The notes under the pieces: generated by a model
The model's input: only the letters and a program-made list of their open reading frames with translations
Database searches by the model: none
What the model was told of the DNA's origin: nothing
Program-made: the position numbers and the translations under genes
Shown here: positions 3,160 through 27,611 of the stretch, in pieces
How positions within the stretch are numbered: position 1 is the first letter of the stretch
Layout: each line of letters starts with the position of its first letter
DNA from: a virus
Lineage: Duplodnaviria; Caudoviricetes
Length of the DNA stretch: 27,706 bases
IMG/VR virus record: IMGVR_UViG_3300020045_003736
Coordinates: 1 to 27,706 of that record
Reading direction: 5' to 3' (one strand)

Positions 3160-3167
3160 TATATTTG
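3160..3167 (+). promoter_or_regulatory. Bacteroidota sigmaA -7 element (TATATTTG)
   Basis: Matches TAnnTTTG in an intergenic gap, directly before a structured leader. Confidence 0.65.
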
Positions 3168-3172
3168 TAAAC

Positions 3173-3254
3173 GTAGAGTGGTCGCTACAAATAAAAACAT
3201 TATATGAATTCCCTTTCATGATGAGACGACCACCTCTGATTGAAAGGGTTTTTT
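3173..3254 (+). ncRNA. kissing-loop leader RNA, copy 1 (before helicase)
   Basis: P1 GTAG/CTAC with loop AGTGGTCG; P2 CCCTTTCA/TGAAAGGG followed by T6, loop contains CGACCAC (3227-3233). Confidence 0.7.
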
Positions 3255-3261
3255 ATTTTAT

Positions 3262-4896
3262 ATGAAGCCAATCCCATATTACTACCAGGAGGCTATGATA
3301 ACCTCAATATTCGACAAAATTGGATTATTCGACAGCGTTTTATGCCAGTCAGCAACCGGAAGTGGTAAGACAGTTATAATGTCAGAATTTATTAGAAGGT
3401 GGTTAGAATTGAATGAAGGCTCTGTTTTAATATCTGTACATAGGGATGAGTTGGTAGACCAAACATCTGAGACTTTAGCAAATTTCGGTATATTAAACGA
3501 AAAGATAAAATCTAAATCAAAGAATAATTTTAATACTCGCGTTTACGTTGGTATGACCCAAACAATATGGAGCCGTAAGTTATCAATAAATATAGGGCTG
3601 CATGTGGTAGATGAGGCACACGAACAGGTTCACGTGAAAACTTTTGATTTGTTTCCTGAATGTAAGCGTGTCGCTTTTACGGCAACACCAATAATAAATA
3701 AAAGAAGGACGGTTTATATTTGTCCATATTGCGATAAAAAACACGAAACCCGTGTTACATGCTGCTACAATGAAAAAGTAGACAAGTGGTCAATGCCTGT
3801 TACAATGTCAGAAACATATCAATCCTTTATTCCAGGAATACCAATTAAAACATTGATTGAAGAAGGGCATTTAGTAGACGAGTTTATATTTTCTTATGAT
3901 TATTATGCAAACTTAGAAGCAAAGGAAAATGACGATTTTGACGAAAACGAAATTGCCGAGGAGAGTACCAAGCATGATTTAGACGTTTTAGAAGAATACA
4001 AAGAAAAGGCTTTGGGTAAAAAAACAATGATTTTTACCGCATCGACAAAACAAAACCTTTCTCTTTTAGATGTCTTTGAGGGATATAATATAAAGTCCTA
4101 CGATAGCGTAAATAACGATGTTTCAGAGCGTAAAAAAATAGTTGAATGGTATCGTAATACTCAGGACGGTATATTAGTGAGTACAGGTACATTTACAACA
4201 GGGTTTGATGATAAAGAAGTGGAGTGTATAATAGTTAACCGACCTACAAAATCATTATCGCTTTGGCATCAAATAGTAGGGCGTGGCGGGCGCACAAGCA
4301 CAAAAATTTACAAACCTTTCTTTACCCTTATAGACTTAGGGGGCAACGTTAAAAGGCTTGGGAAATGGTCGGATAATTTAGATTGGGAGAACATTTTCTA
4401 TAACGGGCTAATACCGCCACGCAAAAAAAAGGAGGTATTAGTACAATGTGGGCGATGTGCTTACAATTGGATTGGCAACATGAGCGATGAATGTCCCGAC
4501 TGCAATTATGTTACTGAAGCACCTAAACGTGAGGTTGCGCCAAAAGGGGATAATGAGCCGGAACGTGCTGAATTAAAAACTACTGCAATATCGGTTATAC
4601 CAATACCCAATGGTAAAAAAATAGCTGAATTTGTAAAGCGAACTACTGACAACAAGAATGACTACTACAACATAATCATAGATAGATATGTAGAACTTTG
4701 GAAGCTGAACCGTGTAAGCCGTGACATATACGTTCAAAGGATTCGAACAGGCTACCTTAATACTCGTATTTCAGAGTATTTAGAGCGAAATTACGGTTAT
4801 GTGAATAGTTTAAAGCATGGTGTGCCACGTACGTACTATTACTTAGCGGGCAAAATAAGAGATAAACTCGCTGATATTTACAAGTTAAACCCTTAA
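3262..4896 (+). CDS. SF2 DEAH-box helicase (RadD/YejH-like) with Zn ribbons
   Basis: Walker A QSATGSGKT, VVDEAH, motif III TAT, motif VI QIVGRGGR; CPYC and CGRC..CPDC. Confidence 0.9.
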   Translation: MKPIPYYYQEAMITSIFDKIGLFDSVLCQSATGSGKTVIMSEFIRRWLELNEGSVLISVHRDELVDQTSETLANFGILNEKIKSKSKNNFNTRVYVGMTQTIWSRKLSINIGLHVVDEAHEQVHVKTFDLFPECKRVAFTATPIINKRRTVYICPYCDKKHETRVTCCYNEKVDKWSMPVTMSETYQSFIPGIPIKTLIEEGHLVDEFIFSYDYYANLEAKENDDFDENEIAEESTKHDLDVLEEYKEKALGKKTMIFTASTKQNLSLLDVFEGYNIKSYDSVNNDVSERKKIVEWYRNTQDGILVSTGTFTTGFDDKEVECIIVNRPTKSLSLWHQIVGRGGRTSTKIYKPFFTLIDLGGNVKRLGKWSDNLDWENIFYNGLIPPRKKKEVLVQCGRCAYNWIGNMSDECPDCNYVTEAPKREVAPKGDNEPERAELKTTAISVIPIPNGKKIAEFVKRTTDNKNDYYNIIIDRYVELWKLNRVSRDIYVQRIRTGYLNTRISEYLERNYGYVNSLKHGVPRTYYYLAGKIRDKLADIYKLNP

Positions 4897-4920
4897 TAAT
4901 CAAATATTAAGGGTTTTTTT
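4887..4920 (+). terminator. intrinsic terminator
   Basis: AAACCCTTAATA-ATCAAA-TATTAAGGGTTT followed by Ts, spanning the helicase stop. Confidence 0.75.
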
Positions 4921-4929
4921 ATGTGATAG

Positions 4930-5036
4930 CGTGTCACATGTTTTATATTTATCCTACTACTATATAGGCTTTTTTTTAATAATAGTCTGTTTTTATATTA
5001 CCACACTTGAAGCTAAAAACATAAACATGTGACACG
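4930..5036. repeat. 14-bp perfect inverted repeat with 79-nt spacer
   Basis: CGTGTCACATGTTT (4930-4943) / AAACATGTGACACG (5023-5036). Confidence 0.85.
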
Positions 5037-5123
5037 AATTAGATTAAACCCCAATAAAATAAGGCTTTTACAGCGTGTTTTATATTTATTTTAATTAATC
5101 ATACATAGTATAATAATATTTAC

Positions 5124-5131
5124 TATATTTG
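5124..5131 (+). promoter_or_regulatory. -7 element (TATATTTG)
   Basis: TAnnTTTG before the primase leader. Confidence 0.65.
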
Positions 5132-5134
5132 CAT

Positions 5135-5232
5135 TAGAGACCATCTACCTCTATTTAAGAAACTGGTTAACTTAACCAAAACAACCCTTGAATGAACTGA
5201 GTAGATGCAGTGATTTTGGGGGTTTTGTTTTT
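5135..5232 (+). ncRNA. kissing-loop leader RNA, copy 2 (before primase-helicase)
   Basis: P1 TAGAG/CTCTA with loop ACCATCTAC; P2 CCCTTGAA-TGA-ACTG[AGTAGATG]CAGT-GAT-TTTGGGGG followed by a T-rich tail; extra hairpin TGGTTAA/TTAACCA in the linker. Confidence 0.7.
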
Positions 5233-5235
5233 ATT

Positions 5236-7587
5236 ATGAGCACAGTATCATTATTCAAGTCTGTAAGAGACCCAAACAATCCGTTTAATAAATCTATTAC
5301 TTATGCCCTTAGCAGAATAAAGGAAGGTAAATCAAAAGACCTTATAGAGCAGCTAAGGATGATGAGTGAGGATGATTATAATAAAAATAAGGCATCACTG
5401 CCAGGTACATGCTTTAACGGTAAATTTAGTACACGTTCTGTTACCGGGCTAATAGAACATTCAGGATTTATTGTTTTAGACATTGACAAACTAACCAAAG
5501 AAGATGCAATAACACTTAGGGATAGTATAAGCAGCGACGAGTACGTTTATTCTGCATGGATAAGTCCAAGCGGTAAGGGTTTAAAGTTGTTGGTTAAGGT
5601 TCCTGCTAAAGCAGAAAATCACAAAGGATATTTTCAAGCATTAAAAAAACATTTTGACCACCCAAACTGGGATGATAGCGGTAGCGACGTTAGCAGGTTT
5701 TGTTTTGAAAGCTACGACCCCGATATTTATATTAATCCTGAAAGTTCTGTTTGGATTGATTTAGAAGAACCTGAATTAGAAGATATAGGTGTTTCTGATC
5801 CAATTGTTAGGATGGTTTCTGAAAACCAAATAATAGAAAATCTTCTCGTTTGGTGGACTAAAAAATATGGAATGACGATAGGCAAGAAGAATACAAACCT
5901 GTATATTCTCGCCAGCGCTTTTTATGATTTTGGAATATCAAAAACCGATGCTGAACATGAGTGCCTTAAATTTAATTCAGGGGGTAAAGAAAAGGAAATA
6001 CTAAGTATTGTAAAATCTTCTTATAAAAAGTCAACCCCCCCAGGAACAAAGCATTTTGAAGATGTTATTACTGCTGAAAGGGTTAAAAAAATGGTTCGCA
6101 ACGGTGCGTCTACTAAAGACATACAAAACACCTTCAAGGGGGTAGATGTAAGCCGTATAAAGCAAAATTTAGATATAGATGAGTTTTGGTATTACAACGA
6201 TAAAAATAAGATAGTACTATCTACTCATAAATTTAAGTTTTGGTTAGAACAAAACAACTTCTTTAAGTACTACCCAAGTGAAACCAGTAATACTTTTACA
6301 TTCATTAAAAAAGAACAGAATTTACTTGAAGAAACAAACGATAAAAGGATAAAGGATTACGTTTTAAACGATATATTACAACGAACCAGTATAGGTTATG
6401 CCCCGTATGATTTCATGGCTGGTAATACGTCTTATTTTAAGTCTGACTTTCTTTCTATGTTGTCTACTACGGAAATATCTATTAAAGAAGATACAAAAGA
6501 AAAATGCTATTTGTATTATAAAAATTGTGTAGTTGAAATAACACCTGATAGCGTTAAAGAAATTGATTATATTGATGTTGATGGTTACATTTGGAAAAGG
6601 CAAATTATTGACCGTAATTTCCAAAAATCAGACCACCATACCGCTGTATTTAGAAAATTCCTTTGGCTTATATCAGGTCAAAACGTGCAAAAATACAATT
6701 CTTTTAAATCTGTTATAGGCTACCTTCTGCACTCTTTTAAAACCAGCGCAAACAATAAGGCTATTATTTTTAATGATGAAACAATATCGGAAAACCCTAA
6801 TGGGGGGAGCGGTAAGGGGTTGTTTTGGAATGCTTTAAAAAACATGAAAAAGGTATCTTCTATTGATGGTAAAACATTTGAGTTCACTAAATCATTCCCT
6901 TATCAAACAGTAAGTACGGATACACAAATATTGGTTTTTGATGATGTTAAAAAGAACTTCAATTTTGAAAGCCTATTCTCATTGATTACAGAAGGTATAA
7001 CGTTAGAGTATAAAGGACAGGATGCCATATCTATACCGGTTGAGCGTTCCCCAAAGATTTTGATAACAACTAACTACACTATAGGTGGAGTAGGAGGTTC
7101 TTTTGAGAGGCGTAAATTTGAGGTTGAGATGAGCGCATACTTTAGCTATAAACATACCCCCTTAGATGAATTTGGGCATATGCTTTTTTCTGACTGGGAT
7201 AATCAAGAGTGGTTAAGGTTTGACAATTTTATGATTAATTGCAGCCAGTACTATTTACAAAATGGATTGGTTAGCCACGACTTCAACAACCTTGATGTTC
7301 GTAAATTTATTAAAGAAACATCATTTGAGTTTTACGAATGGTCAAAAGATGAAGAAAACATTCCCAAAAACATACGTAATGATAAGACGGAATTGTTTAA
7401 TAAGTTTTTACAAGAGTACCAGGACTTTAGAAAATGGCTTAGCCAAAAGCGTTTTACTATGTGGTTAGAACAATATGGCTCATTCTATAAAATTGAAACA
7501 GCACAGGGGCGTACACACGCCATGAGATACATTGAATTTATAACAGATAACAAACTAAGAGAAAATGACGAAGATATTCCGTTCTGA
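5236..7587 (+). CDS. primase-helicase (VirE_N/BT4734-like N-terminal domain, PriCT-like region, SF3 helicase)
   Basis: K.SLP...F.G.F, HSGFIVLDID, SPSGKGLK, D.SR.CF.SYDP; Walker A GGSGKG, Walker B ILVFDD, motif C ITTN; start moved from TTG 5188 (inside the leader hairpin) to ATG 5236. Confidence 0.88.
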   Translation: MSTVSLFKSVRDPNNPFNKSITYALSRIKEGKSKDLIEQLRMMSEDDYNKNKASLPGTCFNGKFSTRSVTGLIEHSGFIVLDIDKLTKEDAITLRDSISSDEYVYSAWISPSGKGLKLLVKVPAKAENHKGYFQALKKHFDHPNWDDSGSDVSRFCFESYDPDIYINPESSVWIDLEEPELEDIGVSDPIVRMVSENQIIENLLVWWTKKYGMTIGKKNTNLYILASAFYDFGISKTDAEHECLKFNSGGKEKEILSIVKSSYKKSTPPGTKHFEDVITAERVKKMVRNGASTKDIQNTFKGVDVSRIKQNLDIDEFWYYNDKNKIVLSTHKFKFWLEQNNFFKYYPSETSNTFTFIKKEQNLLEETNDKRIKDYVLNDILQRTSIGYAPYDFMAGNTSYFKSDFLSMLSTTEISIKEDTKEKCYLYYKNCVVEITPDSVKEIDYIDVDGYIWKRQIIDRNFQKSDHHTAVFRKFLWLISGQNVQKYNSFKSVIGYLLHSFKTSANNKAIIFNDETISENPNGGSGKGLFWNALKNMKKVSSIDGKTFEFTKSFPYQTVSTDTQILVFDDVKKNFNFESLFSLITEGITLEYKGQDAISIPVERSPKILITTNYTIGGVGGSFERRKFEVEMSAYFSYKHTPLDEFGHMLFSDWDNQEWLRFDNFMINCSQYYLQNGLVSHDFNNLDVRKFIKETSFEFYEWSKDEENIPKNIRNDKTELFNKFLQEYQDFRKWLSQKRFTMWLEQYGSFYKIETAQGRTHAMRYIEFITDNKLRENDEDIPF

Positions 7588-7894
7588 GAGCTTTATACAG
7601 GCTAATTGTATTGCGTGGTTCCGCAATGAATATGAGAGGCATGGCAAAGGCGTTATAATACCTGTGCCAAACGAATTAGCAGCGAAGCGAAAAGATGTAA
7701 TTATACGTGTAGGTTGCTCCGATTTAATAATTGCGTTAAAAGGTAAAGTGATATTCGTGGAAATGAAAACAGCTTATAACGGACAGTCAGACGCTCAATT
7801 AGAGTTCCAACAATCAGTAGAAGCATTAGGCTTTGAATATAAAATAATCCGCACATTAGAGGCGTTTAAAGAATTGGTTTATGAGAATTTATAG
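7565..7894 (+). CDS. VRR-NUC domain nuclease / Holliday junction resolvase
   Basis: ES.IQ, VPNE, GCSDL, FVEMKT..GQS..Q. Confidence 0.85.
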   Translation: MTKIFRSESFIQANCIAWFRNEYERHGKGVIIPVPNELAAKRKDVIIRVGCSDLIIALKGKVIFVEMKTAYNGQSDAQLEFQQSVEALGFEYKIIRTLEAFKELVYENL

Positions 7895-8990
7895 AACAGG
7901 TTCAGACTTTTCAGGAGTTGGTGCATTTGACCAAGCTTTAGAATATTTAAGCATTAAGCAGGAAAAAATATTTGCGTGCGATATGGATAAATATGCCCGT
8001 GAAACTTACGTTTTGAATTATGGGGAGCCGGCATATTACCCAAAAGATGTTTATGATCGTGAAATACCAAAAGAGCCTTTAGACATTTATATGACTTCCC
8101 CACCCTGTCAGGGTTTTAGTTTAGCCGGACAAAGGGGTGGGAGCATATTGTTTTTAAATTCGCACGAGTTCATTAAAATTAATAAGCCGAGGTATTTTAT
8201 TTTTGAGAATGTTAAGGGGCTTTTAAGCCATGATAAGCGGGACAAGCAAAATGAATATGGTTATACTTTTAATCAATGGTTAGCCTACTTAGGGGGTAAA
8301 TCTGTAAATGGAAACCCTATAATATTCCCGCACGAAGAAAGCGTTCCTTATCACATTTATCACGCTGTTTTAAATGCTAAGGATTACGGTGTTCCGCAAA
8401 ATAGGGAACGTGTTTTTATAATTGGCATACGTGATGATGCTGATAATGAATTTTCGTTTCCCAAGCCAATACATTTAACTATAAGGTTAAAAGATGTTTT
8501 AGAAAGAAATGTTGATAAGAGATATAACTTAAGTATAAAATATATCGATAGCCTTATTAAACATTCTACAGAACAAAAAAAAAAAGGAAACGGATTTAAA
8601 TTTAGCCCTACTTACGGTTTAAAAATAGCCAATGCTATCACAACAAAGGCGGGACAAAGAACTACGGATAATTATGTTTTTATAAAATCAAATACAGAAA
8701 ATGGTTATGAAATATTAAATGACGGAGATAGTTTAAATTACACTTTTCCCGAAAGTAAGACAAGGCGTGGACGTGTTGGTAAGGAGGTAGGACAAACAAT
8801 AGACACAGCATGCAATCAGGGTGTATTTATAGATAAAAGAATAAGGCGTTTAACACCTCGTGAGTGCTTTAGGCTAATGGGTTTTCCTGATACGTTTAAA
8901 TGGGTTTGTAGCGATACACAAGCATATAAGCAGGCAGGCAATAGTATCGTAAAAGATGTTTTGGCAGCAATATTAAAGCAATTACTATGA
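7881..8990 (+). CDS. DNA (cytosine-5)-methyltransferase
   Basis: Motif I FSGVG, IV SPPCQ, VI FENVKG, VIII PQNRERVF, IX RRLTPREC.RLMGFP, X YKQAGNSI. Confidence 0.93.
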   Translation: MRIYRTGSDFSGVGAFDQALEYLSIKQEKIFACDMDKYARETYVLNYGEPAYYPKDVYDREIPKEPLDIYMTSPPCQGFSLAGQRGGSILFLNSHEFIKINKPRYFIFENVKGLLSHDKRDKQNEYGYTFNQWLAYLGGKSVNGNPIIFPHEESVPYHIYHAVLNAKDYGVPQNRERVFIIGIRDDADNEFSFPKPIHLTIRLKDVLERNVDKRYNLSIKYIDSLIKHSTEQKKKGNGFKFSPTYGLKIANAITTKAGQRTTDNYVFIKSNTENGYEILNDGDSLNYTFPESKTRRGRVGKEVGQTIDTACNQGVFIDKRIRRLTPRECFRLMGFPDTFKWVCSDTQAYKQAGNSIVKDVLAAILKQLL

Positions 8991-9484
8991 AATGCGGCGA
9001 AACTAATCCAACCATACTAACAGCGCCGTCAGGACGACCGTATTACGTTAGCGGCATTGAGCAGCAAGACGGGAAGTGGTACTGCAAAATCAGGTACACT
9101 GATAATTTAGAATACAAAGATGTGCCGTATAGCCAGATATACCCAACACGCCTAATAATTGCAGGCACACGTACGTTTGATAATTATAACTTGCTCGTTA
9201 GCTCAGTTATTAATTTTGTCGATGCTAAAGAAATAGTTTCAGGATGTGCTAATGGAGCAGATACCTTAGGGGAGCAATATGCTAAACAGTACGGTAAAAC
9301 TGTAGTTAAATACCCTGCCGACTGGAATAAATATGGTAAGGGTGCTGGACATATCAGGAATAAAGAAATGGCTTTGTATGCCAGCCATTGTATTGTGTTT
9401 TGGGATGGTAAAAGCAAAGGGACTGAAAACATGATTAGTTTAGCTAAAGAAAACGGTTTAACATTAAAAGTTGTTAGATATTAA
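8987..9484 (+). CDS. DUF2493/YspA-like SLOG-family protein with an N-terminal extra domain
   Basis: IIAGTRTF, EIVSGCANGAD, YPADWNKYGKGAG.IRN.EMA, FWDGKSKGT. Confidence 0.82.
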   Translation: MKCGETNPTILTAPSGRPYYVSGIEQQDGKWYCKIRYTDNLEYKDVPYSQIYPTRLIIAGTRTFDNYNLLVSSVINFVDAKEIVSGCANGADTLGEQYAKQYGKTVVKYPADWNKYGKGAGHIRNKEMALYASHCIVFWDGKSKGTENMISLAKENGLTLKVVRY

Positions 9485-9501
9485 ATTTTTCCGTAAGTTT
9501 G
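9471..9501 (+). promoter_or_regulatory. Bacteroidota promoter (TTG-20 nt-TAAGTTTG) for the tRNA-like pair and terminase
   Basis: -33 TTG at 9471-9473, -7 at 9494-9501. Confidence 0.65.
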
Positions 9502-9506
9502 TGGTT

Positions 9507-9576
9507 ACTACCGTAGCATAAACCTAATGCATGTGGTTCGCTACCACAAGATGCCAGCAAGATTTGGTCGGTAGTT
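9507..9576 (+). ncRNA. tRNA-like cloverleaf (CGC at the anticodon position) with a non-canonical T-loop
   Basis: Acceptor ACTACCG/CGGTAGT 7/7, D stem GCAT/ATGC, anticodon stem TGTGG/CCACA with loop TTCGCTA, T stem GCCAG/TTGGT with loop CAAGAT. Confidence 0.65.
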
Positions 9577-9582
9577 TTAAAT

Positions 9583-9653
9583 ACTTGTGTAGTTCAACGG
9601 TAGAACAACGGTATCCAAAACCGCAGATAGCAGTTCGAATCTGTTCACTCGTG
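9583..9653 (+). tRNA. tRNA-Trp(CCA), variant or pseudo-tRNA
   Basis: D arm GTTC-AACGGTA-GAAC, anticodon loop ATCCAAA (CCA 9615-9617), T arm AGCAG-TTCGAAT-CTGTT, G discriminator; two acceptor-stem mismatches and A27-C43. Confidence 0.7.
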
Positions 9654-9665
9654 CAAATTAATATT

Positions 9666-10181: not shown

Positions 10182-11664
10182 CCTACCCACATTATCGGAA
10201 ATTAAAGCCGAAAGATGCAAACGCTCACTATTCTACTTTTTAAAAGAATTTTGGGGGCATGTTATAAAAGACGAATTTGTTTATAACTGGCATTTGGAGT
10301 ATTTATGTGATGAAGTGCAGCTGGTAATAGATAAATTTGTATTGGACAGGCAGCCACATATACCCAACGACAAATGGTATGTTGGCATAACAGAAGATAT
10401 AAAGCAAAACCTTATTGGTAACGTACCCCCAGGAACAACTAAGAGTACAATATTAAGCAGGGTAGTACCGGCTTGGCTGCCATGCATAGATGATAGTAAA
10501 ACAATTATAGGCAACACCATTGACAGTAAGAATGCTACTGAGTTTGCCATGGCCTCTTTAGATATCATAAAAAGCAATAAATATCAAAGATATTTCCCTA
10601 ATGTAAAAATAAGGCATGATGCAAGCGCTAAGACATTCTACAAGTTTACAGGCGGCGGCATAAGGTACAGCCTAACCACCCGGGGTAGCTCAACGGGAAA
10701 GCATGCCCACTTGCAATTAGACGATGACCCTATGGACTATCAAACGGCACAAAGCCCTGTTGCGGCTAAGGAATGTATAGAGGGCTTTAAGGCGTTGCAA
10801 TCTCGTAAAAAAGACAAAGACAAAACCCCTTATATACTTTTTATGCAGAAGCTGTCTAACCGTGATACATCTGCACACGCCTTAAAGGCACTAAAGGGCA
10901 ACGTAAGGCATATTTGTCTGCCTGCTGAGGATTTATATAACAACATTGAGCCTGTTTCAATGCGTAGCCAATATGTAGACGGATTACTTGACCCAAATCG
11001 ATTAAGCAGGCAAACGCTATTAAAGCAAAAGTTAGGGCTTACAGATGATGGCAAGCCGATTAGCGATATAGCTTACAATATTCAATATAACCAGGCTTCT
11101 GAAACTGGAGAAGATTTGCTTTACCAAGCGTTTAACATGGTGCCGTCATTACCAACCAACAGGGAGGGTATTATACGATACAGCTTTACCGATGTAGCCG
11201 ATACCGGTGCAGATTACTTCTGCACGTGGTTTTGTGAGGTTAACGCAGGTAAAATTTACGTTTACGATGCTGTTTACACTCAGGAGCCGTCCGCTACAAC
11301 AAGCGGTAAGATTAAGGGTAAGATTGATTTACATGGTTCATTAGTTAATAAAATGGAAACTAATAATCAAGGCAGTGTCTTTATAACCATGCTGCAAGGC
11401 TTAGGAGTGAGTATAAGCGGTTATTATAGTCAAGGTAACAAAGAGCAACGAATATCAGCTTTCGCTCAATTCTCGTCGTTTATTTACTTTGTTGAACCAA
11501 ATACTCAAGCCTACCACACCAACGAATACGCCCATGCTATTAAACACATGAAGTCTTACCCGAAAGTGGGCAAAGCCGAGGACGGACACGACGATGCTGA
11601 GGATGCTTTTACCGAATTAATGCGCTATTTATATACCAACCATAGGTATTTGTTTGTATCTTAG
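10162..11664 (+). CDS. terL: terminase large subunit
   Basis: SLF.F.KEFW, YNWHL, Walker A NVPPGTTKST, Walker B LQLDDDP, nuclease FTDVADTG.DY and HDDAEDA; ATG 10162 preferred as start. Confidence 0.92.
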   Translation: MKSKTINLPTLSEIKAERCKRSLFYFLKEFWGHVIKDEFVYNWHLEYLCDEVQLVIDKFVLDRQPHIPNDKWYVGITEDIKQNLIGNVPPGTTKSTILSRVVPAWLPCIDDSKTIIGNTIDSKNATEFAMASLDIIKSNKYQRYFPNVKIRHDASAKTFYKFTGGGIRYSLTTRGSSTGKHAHLQLDDDPMDYQTAQSPVAAKECIEGFKALQSRKKDKDKTPYILFMQKLSNRDTSAHALKALKGNVRHICLPAEDLYNNIEPVSMRSQYVDGLLDPNRLSRQTLLKQKLGLTDDGKPISDIAYNIQYNQASETGEDLLYQAFNMVPSLPTNREGIIRYSFTDVADTGADYFCTWFCEVNAGKIYVYDAVYTQEPSATTSGKIKGKIDLHGSLVNKMETNNQGSVFITMLQGLGVSISGYYSQGNKEQRISAFAQFSSFIYFVEPNTQAYHTNEYAHAIKHMKSYPKVGKAEDGHDDAEDAFTELMRYLYTNHRYLFVS

Positions 11665-11668
11665 CGGT

Positions 11669-11757
11669 CTATTCCATTCGTGCAGGCTTGGAATAGTTGA
11701 ACAATTTAAAATTAAATGCTCATGTTGATACCTTGCACGGTTGATATGTGGGCTTTT
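11669..11757 (+). ncRNA. kissing-loop leader RNA, copy 3 (before the insert between terL and portal)
   Basis: Follows variant -7 TATCTTAG (11657-11664); P1 CTATTCCA/TGGAATAG with loop TTCGTGCAGGCT; P2 GCTCATGT-TGA-T-ACC[TTGCAC]GGT-T-GAT-ATGTGGGC followed by TTTT. Confidence 0.68.
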
Positions 11758-11766
11758 ATTATTATT

Positions 11767-12015
11767 ATGACATTCGCACATGCATACATAGCCTTAGCTG
11801 TTATTTCGGTTGTATACCTTTTTTTGCTATATTATAATTTTGGTATTAAGAAGATTAAGAAGATTAAGAAGATTAAGAAACATGAGTATCTTACGATAAG
11901 TGTGCCTATGGCTCACAATACAGCGGCTAAAATAACCTATTACGAAAAAGATGGATGGGAGTTAATTCATATACACAGTCAAAAATCAGAAACGTATTTA
12001 ACTTTTAAGAAATGA
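11767..12015 (+). CDS. small membrane-anchored protein with an (IKK)4 repeat
   Basis: N-terminal hydrophobic helix; C-term Y.KDGWELI..Y.TFKK; start moved to ATG 11767, after the leader. Confidence 0.65.
   Translation: MTFAHAYIALAVISVVYLFLLYYNFGIKKIKKIKKIKKHEYLTISVPMAHNTAAKITYYEKDGWELIHIHSQKSETYLTFKK
11845..11880 (+). repeat. 9-bp tandem repeat ATTAAGAAG x4
   Basis: Three perfect units plus ATTAAGAAA, in frame. Confidence 0.9.
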
Positions 12016-12824: not shown

Positions 12825-12831
12825 CGTTTTG

Positions 12832-12861
12832 TTGCACGCATAACATTTTTTCCTATATTTG
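12832..12861 (+). promoter_or_regulatory. promoter for the head genes (TTG-19 nt-TATATTTG)
   Basis: Canonical Bacteroidota -33/-7 spacing. Confidence 0.7.
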
Positions 12862-12915
12862 CTCAAATTAACTATGTGAAGATGCGTAGTACCATTGCCA
12901 TAACGAAATAAAAAT

Positions 12916-12954
12916 AAAGGACTACCTGTATTAATTTACGGGCAGTCCTTTTTT
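12916..12954 (+). terminator. terminator or attenuator hairpin in the portal leader
   Basis: AAAGGACTACCTGTA-TTAATT-TACGGGCAGTCCTTT followed by TTT. Confidence 0.7.
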
Positions 12955-12963
12955 ACTTTATAT

Positions 12964-17787: not shown

Positions 17788-17792
17788 AAATT

Positions 17793-18734: not shown

Positions 18735-18737
18735 ATA

Positions 18738-18779: not shown

Positions 18780-18782
18780 ATT

Positions 18783-19739: not shown

Positions 19740-19740
19740 C

Positions 19741-20040: not shown

Positions 20041-20341
20041 CGGCAGTATAATAGGCTATTACCATAGCACTAATTACAGATTATTTAAGCAACAACTTAA
20101 CCCCCTTGCTGGTGGCACAGTCGATTTAATATTGACAGGTGGCTACACACGGGGGTTGTTTGTTGAAAGTTATGGCAACGGACGGTTTTTATTCGATAGC
20201 CACGACGATAAAACGCCTGATTTGGTGGGCAAATACGGACTTCAAATATTAGGTATAAATCAAAACGAATGGTTAAGACTGCAAAAAGAGGTTTACGCAC
20301 CGTTGCTAATAAAGCAGAAAAAGAGAGACTTAGGTATATAG
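19898..20341 (+). CDS. putative tail completion / neck protein
   Basis: G.NPDG..IG.Y, V.L..TG.Y, L..KYG..ILG. Confidence 0.65.
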   Translation: MAISAAEMIRRLKKSIPQTEEQVRRIIMRDPNLLKEKVNEYKKGENPDGSIIGYYHSTNYRLFKQQLNPLAGGTVDLILTGGYTRGLFVESYGNGRFLFDSHDDKTPDLVGKYGLQILGINQNEWLRLQKEVYAPLLIKQKKRDLGI

Positions 20342-20886: not shown

Positions 20887-23800
20887 CAATGAGTTTATAG
20901 AATACGTAAGTAAGGATGCCAACGCGCAACTCCTTGAAAGCGTTAACCTTTTAGAGCGTGTAAATTCACAGATAAAAGCTATTAATGCCACCCCTATAAA
21001 GCTGCCAAGCCAGGCTAAGGCTAATGGTCAACAATCAGCATCCGCTATAAATCAAACCAACACCGCTATAAGGCAACAGGAGCAGCTTACAATACGTTTA
21101 GCAGCTGCCCGAACTAAAGATGCCATTGAGATAGCAAAGCAGCGTATACAGCTTGCGGAGTTAACGAAAGAAAATAAGAAACAGGCGCAGGAGGTACTTG
21201 GGGTTATAGATGCGTATGGTAGGCTCAATAATGAGCTAAATACAACACGAGCTCAAGCAAAGGCTGTAGCTGCTGATATGTTTATTTTAGAGCAGGCAGG
21301 AGATACAACCTCTGATACCTACAATAAACTTTCCGGTACTTACGCAAACCTATCAGGGAGGGTTAACTTGCTCGATACAGGTTTAAAAAAAATAGATTCA
21401 GGTTTAGGCCAATCACAAAGACATGTAGGGGACTATGCCCGGGGATGGAACGGACTTGGAAACGCCATAAACCAATTAACCCGTGAGGCTCCTGCCTTTG
21501 CTGTATCGCTTAACACAGGGTTTTTGGCAATATCAAACAACTTACCTATACTTTTCGATGAGATAAGCAATCTAACAAAAGCAAATAAAGAATTGGCTGC
21601 GCAAGGAAAGCCTACTAATAGTGTGTTAAAAGCTTTAGCTGGATCGTTATTTAGTTTGCAAACCGCTCTTAGTGTTGGAGTAACATTGCTAACTCTTTAC
21701 GGTAAAGAGTTAGTGAATTGGGCATCAAGTTTATTTTCGGTTAAGACAAACATTGATCAAGTTGTAGAGAGTCAGGTTAAGCTTTCGGATGCACAATCAA
21801 AGTCCGCCGCAGCAATTCGATCAACAGCGGAAGAGCTAAAGGGTCTTTTTTATGTTACCACAGACCCTCTTGGTAACATAGATGCAAGAAATGAATCTTT
21901 GAAACAATTGAGGGCTACATATTATTACTTTCTTAAGGACTTTACAGACACTGAAATATTGGCTGGAAAGGCAAATACAGCTATAGAGAAAATTAACGCC
22001 TCAATTGCTGCTCAAAGCAGATTAAGAGGCTTAGAGGGCTATAAAGATGAGACGGTTCAAAGGATAGAGGATATAAACAAGGAGTTAGAGGTTAGGGTGG
22101 ATTTCAATAGAGAAGCTCAAAAGCTTAATCAGGAATACCAAAAGATAGCTGCGGATAATTATAAAAAGTTACAGGCTGGCACACGAACTGAGACTGATGG
22201 TAAAAGACAGGAGGAAGCCTTAAAAGCCGTTCAGACAATTTACAAAGAACGAGACGCGCGCGTTGCATTGCTTAAAACGAAAAATGATGATGTTTTGGCC
22301 ACATGGACTGAAATAGATTTGGCTAATGAAATTATAAGATTAAATGAAACTGCACTAACCACAAATAAAGATATTCAAAAAGATAGAGAGTTAGCTTTAT
22401 TGCTGGATATAAAAGAAGATAAGGCAGCTAAAGAACAAAAAATACAAACTGAAAACCTTGCCGATGTAGAGTCATCACTATACGCTGCCCGGGTAAAGAA
22501 CTTAGAGACCTTAGCCGCTATAAACGATAATATTCTAACTAATGAAGAGCAAAACTTTAGTGATAGGGCTGCTGCGAGTGAGAGATACTATGACATTCAA
22601 AGCGAATTAGCCGAAATGGCATATAACGAAACTGTAAGGCTCGCTAATTTACAAACCAAAGAAGAGATTGCGCAGATAGAGAAACGGGCTAAGGATGGCG
22701 AGATAAGCCAAAAGAACGCCAACCAAGTTATATACAGCCTGCAACAAAAACTAAATGCCGACACGCTTGTGGCTAAAGAGGACTGGGCATCTAAAAACTT
22801 TGAGATTGACTTAGCGTTACAGAATAGCCTTAAGGGTGTTTACAACCAAATATCAGACCAGGGCAGGCAAAACTTACTTGATGAAAAGGCGTTAGCAGAT
22901 TTAAGGGAACTATCAAGGCTTTACCAAAACGTAGATGGTAACACTACTGTTGAGCAGTTCCAAAAGTTAGAGAAAACCGCTAAGAAATTAGAAGAGGAAG
23001 GACTGGAAAGGGAGCGTGAAAGCCTGCGTATTGACTTGCAGCGTGTCCAGTCTGAAATGGAGCGCATAAGGCTACAAGAAGGCTTTACTGAAAACAATGA
23101 GGCATACAACAAGCTAAAAGAGCAGGAGCTTGGATTACAAACCAAGATAGAGGAAAGCACATTAAGGGAGGCACAGGCTAAGGCAGCCATACAGGAGCAA
23201 CTGGTTAAAGCTACTAACGACTACCTTAAGGCTATAAGTGATAGCACCCTAAGTGATTTTGGTTTAGGTGCACTAAACAACCTGTTAGCTATAGATGAGC
23301 AGGGCAAGTCTACCTTTGAGAAACTATTAGAAGGCGCTGAGACATTCGGTGCTAAATTCGCGGTTGCTTTTAACGCTATAACGGAAGTAGCACAAGAGGC
23401 GTTTGCGTTCTTACAACAAAATCAGGATAAGTATTACGATGCCCGTTTTGCGGACTTAAAAAGGCAGTACGAAATTGATACAGCCTTTGCAGGAGATAGT
23501 GCAGACGCTAAAGCAGAGATAGACAGGCAATATGAGGAACAACAAAGGGCGTTACGTATACAACAAGCTAAAGCGCAAAAAGAAACCGCTATATTCAACG
23601 CTGTTATAAATACAGCACAGGGCATTACAGCCGCTTTGGCATCTTTTCCGCCTAATCCTATACTTGCAGCTGTTATCGCCGCCGTTGGTGCCGCACAGAT
23701 AGCTACAATAAGCTCACAGCCATTACCTGCTTATGCTGAGGGTACAGATTACCACATGGGAGGTAAAGCGATAGTAGGGGATGGTGGGCGACCTGAGGTT

Positions 23801-24121
23801 ATACAGCTACCAAGCGGAAGGCGTATGATTACACCTAGCGTTAGTACTGTTGTAGATTTGCCGCGTGGCTCTAAAGTATACCCCGATATTGCTGCTGCTG
23901 GTTTATTAGATAGCCGTTTACCAGGCGTTCCTGTTAATGGGGATGGTGGGCAGGTACTAGATGCCTTAAATAAGATATACGGTGCTGTTAACGGTTCATC
24001 TTACCACGTTAATATTGATAAGGCAGGCGTTAGCAGCTGGGCATCATCAGGGCATAACCGTAAGGTAGACCATAGTAATAGGGTGTCGTTTAAAGGCACG
24101 GTAATTGGCAGGAAAGGATAA
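20876..24121 (+). CDS. tape measure protein
   Basis: 1081 aa, Ala/Glu/Gln/Lys-rich helical; QR.VG.Y, QLTREAP, C-term GAAQIA.I.SQP.P.YA.GT...G.A.VGDGG..E. Confidence 0.9.
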   Translation: MASNNEFIEYVSKDANAQLLESVNLLERVNSQIKAINATPIKLPSQAKANGQQSASAINQTNTAIRQQEQLTIRLAAARTKDAIEIAKQRIQLAELTKENKKQAQEVLGVIDAYGRLNNELNTTRAQAKAVAADMFILEQAGDTTSDTYNKLSGTYANLSGRVNLLDTGLKKIDSGLGQSQRHVGDYARGWNGLGNAINQLTREAPAFAVSLNTGFLAISNNLPILFDEISNLTKANKELAAQGKPTNSVLKALAGSLFSLQTALSVGVTLLTLYGKELVNWASSLFSVKTNIDQVVESQVKLSDAQSKSAAAIRSTAEELKGLFYVTTDPLGNIDARNESLKQLRATYYYFLKDFTDTEILAGKANTAIEKINASIAAQSRLRGLEGYKDETVQRIEDINKELEVRVDFNREAQKLNQEYQKIAADNYKKLQAGTRTETDGKRQEEALKAVQTIYKERDARVALLKTKNDDVLATWTEIDLANEIIRLNETALTTNKDIQKDRELALLLDIKEDKAAKEQKIQTENLADVESSLYAARVKNLETLAAINDNILTNEEQNFSDRAAASERYYDIQSELAEMAYNETVRLANLQTKEEIAQIEKRAKDGEISQKNANQVIYSLQQKLNADTLVAKEDWASKNFEIDLALQNSLKGVYNQISDQGRQNLLDEKALADLRELSRLYQNVDGNTTVEQFQKLEKTAKKLEEEGLERERESLRIDLQRVQSEMERIRLQEGFTENNEAYNKLKEQELGLQTKIEESTLREAQAKAAIQEQLVKATNDYLKAISDSTLSDFGLGALNNLLAIDEQGKSTFEKLLEGAETFGAKFAVAFNAITEVAQEAFAFLQQNQDKYYDARFADLKRQYEIDTAFAGDSADAKAEIDRQYEEQQRALRIQQAKAQKETAIFNAVINTAQGITAALASFPPNPILAAVIAAVGAAQIATISSQPLPAYAEGTDYHMGGKAIVGDGGRPEVIQLPSGRRMITPSVSTVVDLPRGSKVYPDIAAAGLLDSRLPGVPVNGDGGQVLDALNKIYGAVNGSSYHVNIDKAGVSSWASSGHNRKVDHSNRVSFKGTVIGRKG

Positions 24122-24149
24122 AAAAAGCCCCAACCTTACGGAAGGGGCT
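24121..24149 (-). terminator. intrinsic terminator for the minus-strand block
   Basis: Minus strand reads AGCCCC-TTCCGTAAGGTT-GGGGCT followed by a T-run. Confidence 0.8.
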
Positions 24150-24210
24150 ACGCCATAATCTCTAAAATTATAGCAAATATAACATCTACTTTTACAAATA
24201 TATTGAATTT

Positions 24211-24573
24211 TTATTTTGTTTCAATAAGAGTATCTACAAGTTTATATATTATATCTTTATTTTTATTTGACAAAAATCCATTATCAAAATATTTGCCTGT
24301 CCAGTCATAAATACCAATGCCATAAGACAAAGGACGGTTAAAAGGAATAGGTTTGTATTTAACCATATTAATACGGTAATCATTTACAGTTATTTGTAAA
24401 TGAATTTCAGTATCAAAAATATGTTTAATATATATAAAATCATTAGACAAAAGGCCGAATTTTATTTTATTATTTTCTTTACGCCTTTTAATTAAAAAAA
24501 AAATATATTTATGCCACAAGCATGTTGTCGTAAAAAAAAACACCGAAATAATTATTGTCAAGGGAATATACAT
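24211..24573 (-). CDS. very AT-rich hypothetical membrane protein
   Basis: 120 aa with a hydrophobic N-term; starts 2 nt after the upstream stop; T9 and T10 runs on the coding strand. Confidence 0.55.
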   Translation of the reverse strand: MYIPLTIIISVFFFTTTCLWHKYIFFLIKRRKENNKIKFGLLSNDFIYIKHIFDTEIHLQITVNDYRINMVKYKPIPFNRPLSYGIGIYDWTGKYFDNGFLSNKNKDIIYKLVDTLIETK

Positions 24574-24574
24574 T

Positions 24575-25717
24575 TTACTTAAGTGTTATTGGTTCGCCTG
24601 TGTAGGGTTTGAAGTCTTCAATATCCCAGTTGTCGCTGTATTCGCCTTTGTTGGTATCGCTATCTTCAATTAAGCACACACCGCTAAAGGTGTTGTTTAG
24701 ACTGCCGGTGCCTGTAATCATAAAAATAGCATTACCGCTAATACCTTGCGCATAATTTCCTTGTTTCCCCCAGTCAAACTTTTCTTTAGGCTCAGCATCC
24801 AGCACAAGTCGTTTGAAGTCTGATTCGGATAGTAGGGTGTAGCCTTCAGGAATATCCTTTAGTCCTTCGCCATTATGAGCTATAAAATCATATTCATAAG
24901 CATCGCCTGTAAAAAAACCATTTGATACTTCTATTTTCCACTCGGTTAACGTTTCTGCATTCTCGGTCGTTACTCTTACAACCCACTTCTCAGGCAATTC
25001 AGTTAAAGGCTGCTCAACAATTTCTGCCCATTGGCCGTCTCTGTAGAGCCATGGGTTTGAATGGTTTTTATCCCAGTCTTTTTCAGCAGTCTTGCCTTGA
25101 ACGGTGTAATTACAGCACTCAAAATAATCATCGCTTAGTTTGCAATTTTCAGCACCTAGTGATTTCGCCAATGAATTAATTACATCCCCGACTTTATACC
25201 TCCTTTTCGCCTCGTTTATCAAAGAGGTAGATACTTCTTCGGGGGTGGCTGGTGTCCAAAAATCAGGTGTCCATACAGGGCAATAGTCTACCCATTCGGC
25301 ACGAGTGTTAAAACCATAACCTTCGCTTTCAGATGATTTAAAAACTATAGATAAAGGGTCTTTAATTGCTTTATACCACTTACCAGCCTCTAATTTGGTA
25401 GGCTGCACATGCTCCGATACTGTTTGTATTTCTTCAACTAAATTAAATGGATTTTTTACAAAACGTTCTAAAGCGGTAAGCCTTCTCTCTAACGCCTTTA
25501 GTTTGTTCTTGCGCTTAGGTATGAAGTCTGAGGCGGGGAGTTGTAAGCCATTCCATATTGCTTGCCATTCCCAAACGGAACCATTAGACCAAAGGTATCG
25601 GGCTATTAATTCTTTGTGGTATACTTTATTGGTTAGCTTACAAATAGCCTTAGCCTCTTTCTTATTGGCTATGTAAATTGCCTCATTGGGCTGTAGTGAT
25701 GATAATTTGCGTTTCAT
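24575..25717 (-). CDS. mosaic hypothetical phage protein
   Basis: Start moved to 25717 (ATGA overlap); modules LEAGKWYK, PATPEEV..SLI.EAKRRY, G.WAEIV, LPEKW. Confidence 0.75.
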   Translation of the reverse strand: MKRKLSSLQPNEAIYIANKKEAKAICKLTNKVYHKELIARYLWSNGSVWEWQAIWNGLQLPASDFIPKRKNKLKALERRLTALERFVKNPFNLVEEIQTVSEHVQPTKLEAGKWYKAIKDPLSIVFKSSESEGYGFNTRAEWVDYCPVWTPDFWTPATPEEVSTSLINEAKRRYKVGDVINSLAKSLGAENCKLSDDYFECCNYTVQGKTAEKDWDKNHSNPWLYRDGQWAEIVEQPLTELPEKWVVRVTTENAETLTEWKIEVSNGFFTGDAYEYDFIAHNGEGLKDIPEGYTLLSESDFKRLVLDAEPKEKFDWGKQGNYAQGISGNAIFMITGTGSLNNTFSGVCLIEDSDTNKGEYSDNWDIEDFKPYTGEPITLK

Positions 25718-25872
25718 AATGTTATTTGTTGTTGGTTTATATATTCCTTTATTCTTAAGCAAGCTATTTCCAGTATATCAATGTGAGTTTGTATACAACC
25801 TCTGTTTTTAAACTGAAAAGACACGTCTATAATATTTTTTATCTCTCTTTCCTCTTCCGTTATTGGGGTCAT
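25714..25872 (-). CDS. small hypothetical protein (52 aa)
   Basis: MTPITEEEREIK...; ATGA-coupled on both sides when started at 25872. Confidence 0.55.
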   Translation of the reverse strand: MTPITEEEREIKNIIDVSFQFKNRGCIQTHIDILEIACLRIKEYINQQQITL

Positions 25873-26471
25873 AAACATTGTAAAATCCCACTTAGGAGGT
25901 TCGTTTTTTTGTTTTTTATCTCCAAACATAATATTATTTGTTGTTGGTTAGTAATTCGGGGTTTAGTGTTTCTTCTGTTTTTAGCTTGTTGATTATTAGG
26001 TATCCATGTACAATTTAATGGTTCATAATTACCATTTACATTAATTCTTTCTATAGTTAAATTATTTTCATATCCATTTGATAAAGCCCAAGATTTGAAT
26101 AAAGAATAATCATTTATCCATTCAGGACAAACAATAATGCCTCTACCTCCATAATTTATATAATCTTTACTATTTTCTTCATAGCACCTTTTAATCATAT
26201 CTGTGTATGTTCTGTGAAGCCTTTGCCTACTTTCTCCATGTTTGTAATTTGTACTGTAAATCCCAGTTATACATTCCTTATTTTGCAATTTCCAGTTTAC
26301 ATAACAATATCTATTACAGTATTTTTTATTTACTGATGGTTTAGTAACAGGTAATTTTTCGCTACAAAATTTACAATCTTTATCAGATAAAAGTATTTTG
26401 CCGCAAGAACCTCTTTTATGATTAGAATATGACTTTGCGTTGTTTGTCTTATACCCGCACTTGCATTCCAT
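25869..26471 (-). CDS. HNH endonuclease with N-terminal Zn-finger motifs
   Basis: HG...RL...Y..M..RCY, YGGRGI.VC.EW, LTIERI.VNGNYEP.NC.W; C.CG, CKFC, YCNRYC. Confidence 0.85.
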   Translation of the reverse strand: MECKCGYKTNNAKSYSNHKRGSCGKILLSDKDCKFCSEKLPVTKPSVNKKYCNRYCYVNWKLQNKECITGIYSTNYKHGESRQRLHRTYTDMIKRCYEENSKDYINYGGRGIIVCPEWINDYSLFKSWALSNGYENNLTIERINVNGNYEPLNCTWIPNNQQAKNRRNTKPRITNQQQIILCLEIKNKKTNLLSGILQCL

Positions 26472-26486
26472 AATATTTTATAATAA

Positions 26487-26511
26487 AGAAACCCCTACAC
26501 ACTTTTAAGGG
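26487..26511 (-). terminator. weak hairpin or terminator between the repeat protein and HNH genes
   Basis: Minus strand reads AACCCTTA-AAAGTGTG-TAGGGGTT followed by TCTTT. Confidence 0.45.
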
Positions 26512-26521
26512 TTAATGTGGT

Positions 26522-27463
26522 TTATACTCTAACTCCTGTTATATCAAAAAATACATCAGCATCAAAATTTGGCAAATCAATAAATGACTGTTTGGCGCTA
26601 TCGCTCCAATTGTTCCAAGCATTAATGAAAGACTCTTTATAGGGTAAATATTTAATATAACCGCCTGTGGTTATAAAATAAGGATAAAGTGATTTTTCTT
26701 CTTCACTCATTTTGTAGCCGGGAACCCACAAAGTAGTGTCTATTGATTGCAACAATGAATATGCATCTGATTTAACAAATTCTTCATAAGACCATTTAGA
26801 CGGCTTATTAAACATAATGTAATTTGGTTTTTCCAAATTATTAAATGCGCCTGCGTTGTCGTTGCCTGCGTTGCTGTTGCCTGCGTTTTTGTTGCCTGCG
26901 TTGTAGTTGCCTGCGTTGTCGTTGCCTGCGTTGCTGTAGCCTGCGTTTCTGTTGCCTGCGTTGTAGTTGCCTGCGTTGTCGTTGCCTGCGTTGCTGTTGC
27001 CTGCGTTGTCGTTGCCTGCGTTGCTGTAGCCTGCGTTTCTGTTGCCTGCGTTGTAGTTGCCTGCGTTTCTGTTGCCTGCGTTGTAGTTGCCTGCGTTGCT
27101 GTTGCCTGCGTTTCTGTTGCCTGCGTTGCTGTAGCCTGCGTTTCCTATCCCCGTATTACCTTTTCCAATATTTACAATATTGAGAACTTCTAACCAAGAT
27201 ATTTCTTTTATAAACTTAATTTTTTCTACACAATGCTTATCTCCATCGGTATCAAAATTACCGTATCCTTCAACTTCAAAAACTCTATTGTTAGGGTTAA
27301 AAGAGTAATAATTAAAACAGTCTTTAAGCTCAACACAAAAGTGAAAGCCGTTATTACATGCTTTAATATTTCCTTTTTCTTTATACTCTTTGTCAACTTC
27401 AAATTGAAAACCTCGGCACTGCATATTTTCGTCAGTTACCTTAAATCCTTTAATTACTTCCAT
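26522..27463 (-). CDS. DUF7666-like N-terminal domain plus NAG(N/Y)x pentapeptide-repeat protein
   Basis: KGFK......CRGFQFE, C..GFHFC...DCF.YY, R.FEV; 20 NAG repeats; C-term LPNFDADVF..ITG. Confidence 0.85.
   Translation of the reverse strand: MEVIKGFKVTDENMQCRGFQFEVDKEYKEKGNIKACNNGFHFCVELKDCFNYYSFNPNNRVFEVEGYGNFDTDGDKHCVEKIKFIKEISWLEVLNIVNIGKGNTGIGNAGYSNAGNRNAGNSNAGNYNAGNRNAGNYNAGNRNAGYSNAGNDNAGNSNAGNDNAGNYNAGNRNAGYSNAGNDNAGNYNAGNKNAGNSNAGNDNAGAFNNLEKPNYIMFNKPSKWSYEEFVKSDAYSLLQSIDTTLWVPGYKMSEEEKSLYPYFITTGGYIKYLPYKESFINAWNNWSDSAKQSFIDLPNFDADVFFDITGVRV
26849..27142 (-). repeat. 15-bp tandem repeat, 20 units with invariant core AACGCAGGC
   Basis: GCCTGCGTT recurs every 15 nt on the + strand from 26849 to 27134. 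Confidence 0.95.
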
Positions 27464-27485
27464 TGGTTAAATATATTTTAAAATA

Positions 27486-27578
27486 CAAAACCCGTATAAT
27501 CCGGATGCGCTTCACTTCATCTTTCATATACGGGTAGTATAATGTTTTTTTGGTTGCGTATTGTGAAGCGGCAACACG
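27486..27578 (-). ncRNA. kissing-loop leader RNA, copy 4 (before the repeat protein)
   Basis: P1 CGTGTTG/CAATACG with loop CCGCTTCA; P2 CCCGTATA-TGA-AA-GATG[AAGTGAAGCG]CATC-CG-GAT-TATACGGG followed by TTTT. Confidence 0.7.
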
Positions 27579-27579
27579 A

Positions 27580-27611
27580 CAAATGTACAAATATTTTCAT
27601 TACTTTTACAA
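27580..27611 (-). promoter_or_regulatory. promoter (TTG-21 nt-TACATTTG) for the minus-strand block
   Basis: Canonical Bacteroidota -33/-7 arrangement on the minus strand. Confidence 0.7.

Follow-up and report, generated by a model that had tools for sequence, protein, structure and literature searches.

Why should a terminator precede the helicase, primase and initiator genes of phages that use host promoters and have no recognisable antiterminator? The question is raised by the virus record IMGVR_UViG_3300020045_003736 (Caudoviricetes), which was analysed as a whole (the window, 27,706 bases) and encodes a helicase, a primase-type protein, a DNA methylase, terminase subunits, a portal and tail proteins. 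An initial annotation of this DNA had proposed four promoter-proximal leaders with one architecture: a -7 promoter box, a small hairpin (P1), an A-rich linker, a long terminator-like hairpin (P2) and a U tract, with the P1 loop (the seed) complementary to the apex of P2. We refer to this loop-loop pairing as the kiss and to its letters as the code of a leader. Cultured-phage relatives of the window primase mostly infect Flavobacterium, Nonlabens, Polaribacter and Cellulophaga, from which we infer a host within the Flavobacteriia.

All four leaders were located at the positions first assigned to them (Table 1), and predicted folding agrees with the arrangement of P1, linker, long P2 and U tract (z about -2 for each leader). 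A descriptor fitted to the four leaders (8-base-pair (bp) basal stem, TGA...GAT, U tract, and P1 loop-apex pairing of at least 6) gave exactly four matches in the window, against a mean of 0.01 per shuffle in 100 local dinucleotide shuffles, one of which gave a single match. The four seed and apex pairs carry the letters originally reported, UGA lies opposite GAU in 4/4 copies, and copies 1 and 4 have an 11-nucleotide (nt) linker motif in common. A few details required correction. The -7 box described for every copy is present in copies 1, 2 and 4 and is degenerate in copy 3, with one mismatch, and the spacing of about 25 nt or less between U tract and ATG is exceeded in copy 4 (27 nt). When the start is placed from a -7 box at -12 to -5, as given in the available text of PMC9723704, the predicted starts coincide with or adjoin the first base of P1. 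Copy 2 has an additional hairpin in its linker. Copy 3 is the outlier among the window leaders: its pairing consists of 6 Watson-Crick pairs and a G-U and invades a 3-bp inner stem, and a model built solely from copy-2-type leaders recovers copies 1 and 4 (E about 1e-3) and misses copy 3. Leaders of a subtype similar to copy 3 are carried by L001, L033, L064 and L149.

Loci of related phages were fetched via relatives of the helicase, primase, terminase and DUF7666 genes, together with whole or near-whole records and two linker patterns. Scanning these for units that combine a -7 box with a terminator-like hairpin and an open reading frame (ORF), chosen regardless of pairing, gave 46 units in 35 records (1.53 Mb). 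Their first 26 nt pair with the loop of the terminator over at least 7 bases in 35/46 units and over at least 6 in 39/46, compared with at least 7 in 14/2060 of a control with swapped loops. The remaining seven units are unpaired, and several of them precede genes that by resemblance encode portal, head-protease or terminase-like proteins. A second test used a pattern free of both P2 and the pairing and gave 108 distinct matches; ten had a called terminator, and in 10/10 of these 7 bases pair. Four further members that the terminator caller had missed were recognised by eye; model R2 scored them, and one of them (L206) has a mismatched kiss. The family set holds 67 distinct P2s and 48 seeds (68 were found, and L022:7801 was removed as doubtful); pairing reaches at least 7 in 58/67 of them and in 21/4320 unrelated pairs, a contrast given for comparison only because the set was selected for pairing.

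The covariation that had been claimed from four copies extends to the relatives. In an alignment of 15 copy-2-type leaders, 100% of the kiss positions pair, 3/7 pairs have changed on both sides, and the score was reached by 0/500 shuffles; in 10 copy-1-type leaders 84% of the kiss cells pair, with some rows out of register. The leader recurs in dozens of relatives of this phage, cultured ones among them. It precedes gp54, a replication initiator, in FCL-2, and an endonuclease and the helicase operon in mumin6-1; hattifnatt9-1 has three copies and elemoF one. Between the orthologous leaders of mumin6-1 and hattifnatt9-1 the kiss differs by compensatory changes. Shuffles, the swap control and the pair counts all reject chance, and the proposal of a covarying family of promoter-proximal leaders with a kissing pseudoknot and a terminator-like P2 is supported; judging from these comparisons, the seed-apex pairing is real and selected. 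An HNH endonuclease gene is inserted between the copy-2-orthologous leader and the primase gene in L008 (5599-6001) and L002 (7852-8322), so the leader stays whether the nuclease is present or not.

The geometry of the pairing is highly regular. In 61/67 members the P2 loop has 0 unpaired bases 3' of the pairing (flush), 33 members have 7 bp with one bridging base and 13 have 8 bp with two, and the P1 loops follow the same geometry where P1 exists (52/67). This is the arrangement of a kiss that stacks between the two stems; strand invasion would look different. P1 had been described as an obligatory part, and this does not hold across the family, as 15/67 leaders carry a bare 5' seed. No kiss position is invariant, and 22 distinct flush 7-mers occur. 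The predicted energies are a median of -9.1 kcal/mol for the kiss duplex, -2.3 for P1 and -1.1 for the P2 apex (the apex median from 46 split P2s). The linker is 50% A and has a length of 20.0 nt without an internal hairpin, 32.1 nt with a hairpin and 17.3 nt once the hairpin is collapsed. Its length scales with that of P2 (rho 0.35, p 0.004, the p value being optimistic for related sequences) and is under constraint.

Within P2, the tandem GA for which a protein-binding role had been suggested is not an invariant site: it is found in 40/67 members only, exactly as UGA/GAU in 22/67, and is symmetric and without the bulge of a kink-turn (K-turn). Internal loops of P2 are mostly symmetric 3x3 or 4x4, and the few asymmetric ones carry their extra bases 3' of the GA. 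P2 departs from the simple split form in 21/67 members, several of which are uninterrupted 11-13-bp stems that still keep the kiss. The basal stem is retained in the minimum-energy fold of 65/67 members, and the U tract has at least 6 T of 8 in 61/67. The leaders thus have the mark of an intrinsic terminator, a G/C-based stem with a U tract immediately behind it, which was also a search criterion here.

The window gene assignments bear out that the leaders head helicase, primase and accessory genes. By eye, the 67 leaders precede 17 helicases, 14 primases, 3 initiators, 14 endonucleases, 3 methylases, 1 RecT and 15 others, with helicase and primase counts inflated because loci were fetched via those genes; 36 of the ORFs were scanned, while the identity of the others came from searches with relatives, the annotation of two records, or resemblance. 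Specificity for homing endonucleases was considered and rejected, since only 14/67 leaders head an endonuclease. In the window, 13 nt separate the U tract from the ATG of the primase gene, and the upstream helicase unit ends at a predicted terminator of its own, so that the primase depends on the copy 2 promoter and its messenger RNA must pass P2. On this layout, helicase and primase would be transcribed only through a terminator, and read-through must occur. No NusG-family gene was detected in 20/20 records, nor a tyrosine integrase in the same 20 (controls positive in 10 and 14 of 14), and no antiterminator or RNA-binding Pfam domain among the 115 ORFs scanned, of 156 called, in the complete relatives G002 and G004, the ORFs left out being structural, already assigned or longer than 700 amino acids.

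The position of the leader also fits a different role, in which P2 is not a working terminator and a compact pseudoknot protects the 5' end while leaving a U/A-rich stretch for initiation without a Shine-Dalgarno sequence. In 33/34 leaders the first base of P1 falls between -3 and +4 relative to the predicted +1, the ATG lies 8-31 nt from the U tract in the family, and essential genes stand directly behind the leader, all as such a role would have it. However, the U tract always adjoins the G/C-rich base of the stem, whatever the distance to the ATG, and the kiss-less terminator leaders before structural genes of the same phages (7/46) point to termination control as a general habit; we regard this role as distinctly unlikely. 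Equally, the seeds of copies 1 and 3 follow upstream stop codons at distances of 23 and 13 nt, as would suit an insulator in which the ribosome ending the upstream gene masks the seed, so that upstream transcripts stop and those from the leader's own promoter pass. A seed at most 35 nt from an upstream stop is found in only 14/59 measurable members, and the distance exceeds 60 nt in 32, copy 2 included, which leaves the insulator very improbable.

We consider it about an even call that the leader is instead a ligand-free cis attenuator of transcription: the paired loops would impede closure of the terminator at its base, and a fraction of the polymerases would read through. Both the direction in which the switch works and its input are inferred. 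Host sigma-A polymerase would initiate at or beside P1, and as the apex emerges from the polymerase the seed would capture it, forming the strongest early helix (about -9 against -1 to -2 kcal/mol), which could arise ahead of synthesis of the basal stem's 3' arm. Stacking of P1, kiss and inner stem would give a rigid rod, with the 19-22-nt linker folded back alongside. The 8-bp basal stem below the tandem-GA hinge would then have to wind with its 3' end held by the polymerase and its 5' arm in a closed ring; with the ring closed by the kiss, P2 (about 1.4 turns) could zip only with the linker wrapped round it, a limit that the linker appears to be near. Slow or strained winding would let the polymerase pass the U tract, and a base that zips first would cause termination and release an RNA of 80-100 nt. 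Such a kinetic valve, with read-through when the kiss comes first and termination when the base does, would leave the kiss letters free because only pairing matters. Candidate inputs are the speed of the polymerase, Mg2+, temperature, a host factor and leaders that have been released. The outcome would be a portable valve that sets the dose of DNA genes sensitive to it (helicases, primases, initiators, endonucleases and methylases). In favour of this reading stand the selected pairing, the stacked geometry of the kiss, the constrained linker, the terminator-like stem base and U tract, the need for read-through into the primase gene, the guanidine-IV precedent, and the negative searches for NusG-family genes and antiterminator domains in the records and ORFs scanned.

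Several observations weigh against this attenuator. By estimates from textbook helix dimensions, the linker spans the fully folded rod along a straight path in 61/67 members, with a major-groove wrap in 57/67 and with a minor-groove wrap in 17/67; on the first two paths it is mostly long enough for kiss and full terminator together, and only the minor-groove path is too long for most members, so that plain linker stretching of the kind proposed for the guanidine-IV riboswitch does not apply. Loss of the cis pairing also occurs, since one primase leader of G004 (L073 8628-8692) has kept P2 and apex and lost the 5' seed, and L206 has a mismatch in the kiss. Most small ORFs lack a known family, so an unrecognised antiterminator is possible. 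A weak promoter could be a simpler route to a fixed dose.

The kiss could also equally stabilise a weak P2 apex and favour termination. In that case the terminator would be closed by default, and a phage or host factor (a small molecule, or a protein bound to the tandem GA or to the linker) would open the gate. The apex hairpin alone is indeed marginal (median -1.1 kcal/mol in the 46 split P2s), the linker is able to span the fully folded structure, and both the tandem GA (40/67) and a linker motif (20/67) persist across differing codes. This reading is nonetheless unlikely: 21/67 P2s are not of the simple split form, several uninterrupted stems need no help yet keep the kiss, the 22 distinct flush 7-mers share no invariant loop base, and no NusG-family or known antiterminator gene was found in the 20 records and 115 ORFs scanned. 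The sole natural precedent, guanidine-IV, acts in the opposite direction.

In the guanidine-IV riboswitch (GGAM-1/mepA), whose read-through is ligand-dependent, polymerase passes the terminator when the terminator loop is engaged in a kiss, and stretching of the linker is the mechanism proposed (PMC7736828, PMC11611296). The phage leaders resemble it and Gd4v, as presented in the available text of PMC7736828, PMC11611296 and PMC9788692, in having two linked hairpins in cis before a gene, the 3' one a terminator, with loops that pair. Pairing of the 5' hairpin loop with the loop of a Rho-independent terminator is seen in the phage leaders from predicted structure and covariation. Conserved loop or pocket bases are not seen, with 48 distinct seeds in 67 leaders and no invariant position. 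Guanidine-IV precedes SugE, PnuC, MATE, NimA, B3/B4 and GNAT genes (PMC7736828), whereas the phage leaders precede helicases, primases, initiators, nucleases, methylases and unknowns (36 ORFs and the window genes) rather than genes of transporter type. They further differ in a 7-9-bp kiss of free letters, a linker about twice as long, the tandem-GA hinge and the fused Bacteroidota promoter; in the Lactococcus example of guanidine-IV in PMC7736828 we counted by eye about 10 linker bases for a 19-bp stem. By analogy, the phage leader would work like guanidine-IV but is not a member of it.

The 5' terminators and hairpins of T4 mobE, segF and I-TevI (PMC2988022) are likewise leaky terminators near the start of a nuclease gene that limit dose, and in the available text of that paper they are plain hairpins inside or at the start of the coding region, without an upstream seed or pseudoknot. 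Unlike the T4 hairpins, most phage leaders head replication genes, each with its own promoter, and 14/67 head endonucleases. Loop-loop recognition, changeable codes and termination before replication or lytic genes are also features of the pT181 and pIP501 rep attenuators and of the P1 C4 and P4 CI immunity RNAs. Those systems use a separate or antisense partner RNA and an alternative antiterminator helix, whereas the phage leader has both loops in one RNA. An antisense -7 box within 150 nt downstream is not enriched (5/67 against a background of 9.3%, for this promoter type only). With the 3' arm of P2 removed, its 5' arm is mostly paired upstream in 21/67 members, and the full minimum-energy folds keep the basal stem as given above. 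Like the leader as proposed, the HK022 put RNAs are factor-free, promoter-proximal, two-hairpin phage RNAs that act on the transcribing polymerase; put binds the beta-prime zinc-binding domain and gives processive antitermination. Unlike the phage leader, the put RNAs have a conserved sequence, no loop-loop code, and are not themselves terminators. Tandem sheared G-A pairs beside U-U form the core of K-turn, box C/D and SECIS motifs, and the K-turn has a 3-nt bulge 5' of the GA. Tandem G-A pairs are present in 4/4 window copies and 40/67 family members, and we rejected a K-turn because the loops are mostly symmetric 3x3 or 4x4, without the 3-nt bulge, and the tandem GA is absent from 27/67.

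The different codes had been thought to prevent cross-talk. Among the window copies, Watson-Crick pairing is 2-4 for non-cognate and 6-7 for cognate combinations; with G-U allowed, two non-cognate pairings reach 7 and 8, so the codes are strictly orthogonal only at the Watson-Crick level. Non-cognate pairing within genomes (mean 2.83, n=82) equals that between genomes (2.93, n=1988), and one code serves both the helicase and the primase leader of G003, where the helicase seed forms 9 bp with the primase apex. These results speak against selection for insulation, and from the sequences the codes look like products of compensatory drift. Diversifying selection was likewise unsupported, as the kiss columns vary no more than the stem columns (3/7 against 3/5 and 5/8); a count of G-U against A-C was biased by the descriptor and was not used. 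The helicase-leader seed of G003 and, by eye, that of G004 match the primase-type apex of L073.

The 9-bp pairing within G003 would also suit a role of released leaders in trans, capturing the seed or apex of same-code leaders, blocking the cis kiss and throttling their own gene as template copies rise, either as feedback or to exclude co-infecting relatives. The gated genes are dosage-sensitive, and a 7-8-bp kiss is stable in trans according to a general statement in the available text of PMC10907184. Such action is quite improbable given that neither selection for orthogonality nor a sign of diversifying selection is seen, and a released RNA could kiss itself and hide both loops. Unlikely too, in our estimation, is the wider synthesis in which a freely recodable kiss gates an intrinsic terminator by topology, free of ligand and protein, and released leaders compete in trans, giving copy-number feedback on the replication genes of lytic Bacteroidota phages and on their mobile nuclease cassettes.

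The leaders have no match in Rfam. Against Rfam 15, with Flavo-1, Pedo-repair, C4 and Bacteroidales-1 among its families, the window gives only a tRNA, the four leaders alone reach a best E of 0.47, far below the gathering score, and 13 homologous loci give nothing on the leaders. The alignments of Pedo-repair, Flavo-1 and Chlorobi-1 in the supplement of PMC2864571, in the part available, look unrelated, and C4 appears in Table 1 of that paper. We found no description in the literature, in a search that left subscription papers mostly outside and covered the supplements of Fremin 2023 (PMC10690425) in part; an unnamed entry may be among those supplements. The comparisons indicate a real phage RNA family, without description in the literature searched.

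Bacterial genomes and plasmids gave no leader in searches of weak sensitivity, which does not equal absence. A GTDB search with the primase found no relative, a subfamily pattern gave 12 matches in GTDB of which none passed the descriptor, and a further pattern matched once, and its control twice, across 401 genomes from the family to which G036 belongs. With only 62 candidates per genome scored, model R2 detected no leader in 61 genomes of its phylum, and one query had no match in plasmids. Among phages, no member passed in BT-TP2, lotta8-1, phi46:1, P12024S, Leef_1 or six IMG/VR records, and BLAST with copy 4, copy 3 and L031 gave no full-length cultured match. In the metagenome contigs Ga03079xx (L236-L352), many chance pattern matches belong to a single dispersed repeat family, which varies in its 3' flanks and is unrelated to the leader.

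The leader offers a testable answer to how these phages dose their replication and nuclease genes, and it is present in cultured phages with cultured hosts. It would also provide a natural ligand-independent system for asking how a kiss on a terminator loop alters termination, a point left open in the available text of PMC7736828 and PMC11611296. The promoter and 90-nt valve, with 48 natural codes, could serve as a tuning part for Bacteroidota genetics.

Table 1. Positions of the four leaders, their parts and the associated genes in the window
Feature	Coordinates	Strand	Details
Copy 1, Bacteroidota -7 promoter box (TAnnTTTG)	3160..3167	+	predicted +1 at 3172
Copy 1, P1 (4-bp stem, 8-nt loop)	3173..3188	+	seed 3178-3184
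Copy 1, linker	3189..3210	+	22 nt, A-rich, motif in common with copy 4
Copy 1, P2 and U tract	3211..3259	+	P2 3211-3248; tandem GA 3219-3221/3238-3240; apex 3227-3233; U tract 3249-3259
DNA helicase gene behind copy 1	3262..4896	+	superfamily 2 (SF2), ResIII/Helicase_C
Predicted intrinsic terminator	4887..4916	+	closes helicase unit
Copy 2, -7 box	5124..5131	+	predicted +1 at 5136
Copy 2, P1 (5-bp stem, 9-nt loop)	5135..5153	+	seed 5142-5148
Copy 2, linker	5154..5184	+	31 nt, extra hairpin 5164-5178, effective length about 19 nt
Copy 2, P2 and U tract	5185..5233	+	P2 5185-5222; apex 5201-5207; U tract 5223-5233
Primase/helicase-type gene behind copy 2	5236..7587	+	BT4734-like N domain
Copy 3, -7 box	11657..11664	+	one mismatch; overlaps terL stop codon; predicted +1 at 11669
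Copy 3, P1 (8-bp stem, 12-nt loop)	11669..11696	+	seed 11679-11685
Copy 3, P2 and U tract	11718..11764	+	P2 11718-11753; apex 11733-11739; U tract 11754-11764
82-amino-acid ORF behind copy 3	11767..12015	+	of unknown family; the first in a row of three small ORFs from terL to the portal gene
Copy 4, -7 box	27580..27587	-	predicted +1 at 27575
Copy 4, P1	27557..27578	-	seed 27570-27564
Copy 4, P2 and U tract	27480..27534	-	P2 27534-27491; apex 27515-27508; U tract 27490-27480
DUF7666 and pentapeptide-repeat gene behind copy 4	26522..27463	-	
HNH endonuclease gene	25869-26471	-	after DUF7666/pentapeptide gene

Other features were noted in the window. A tRNA-Trp(CCA) gene lies at 9583-9654 (+), directly before the gene for the terminase small subunit. 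A gene-free stretch of 227 nt at 2382-2608 (+), with more G+C than the other gaps and no Rfam match, precedes a DnaA helix-turn-helix/DUF4406 gene. A weak terminator-like hairpin at 26478-26570 (-), without a convincing kiss, stands before the HNH gene. At 4887-5036 (+) the strong terminator after the helicase gene is followed by an AT-rich gap with an inverted pair of 7-mers (4931, 5028); similar repeats occur upstream of the primase in L019, L036, L038 and L039-L045, and the gap is a candidate replication origin. Before the portal gene, at 12854-12958 (+), a -7 box, a small hairpin with a conserved purine-rich loop, a terminator, a U tract and an ATG follow one another without a kiss. The loop motif recurs in L020, L021, L055 and L066, and this element is a candidate protein-binding leader of late genes.

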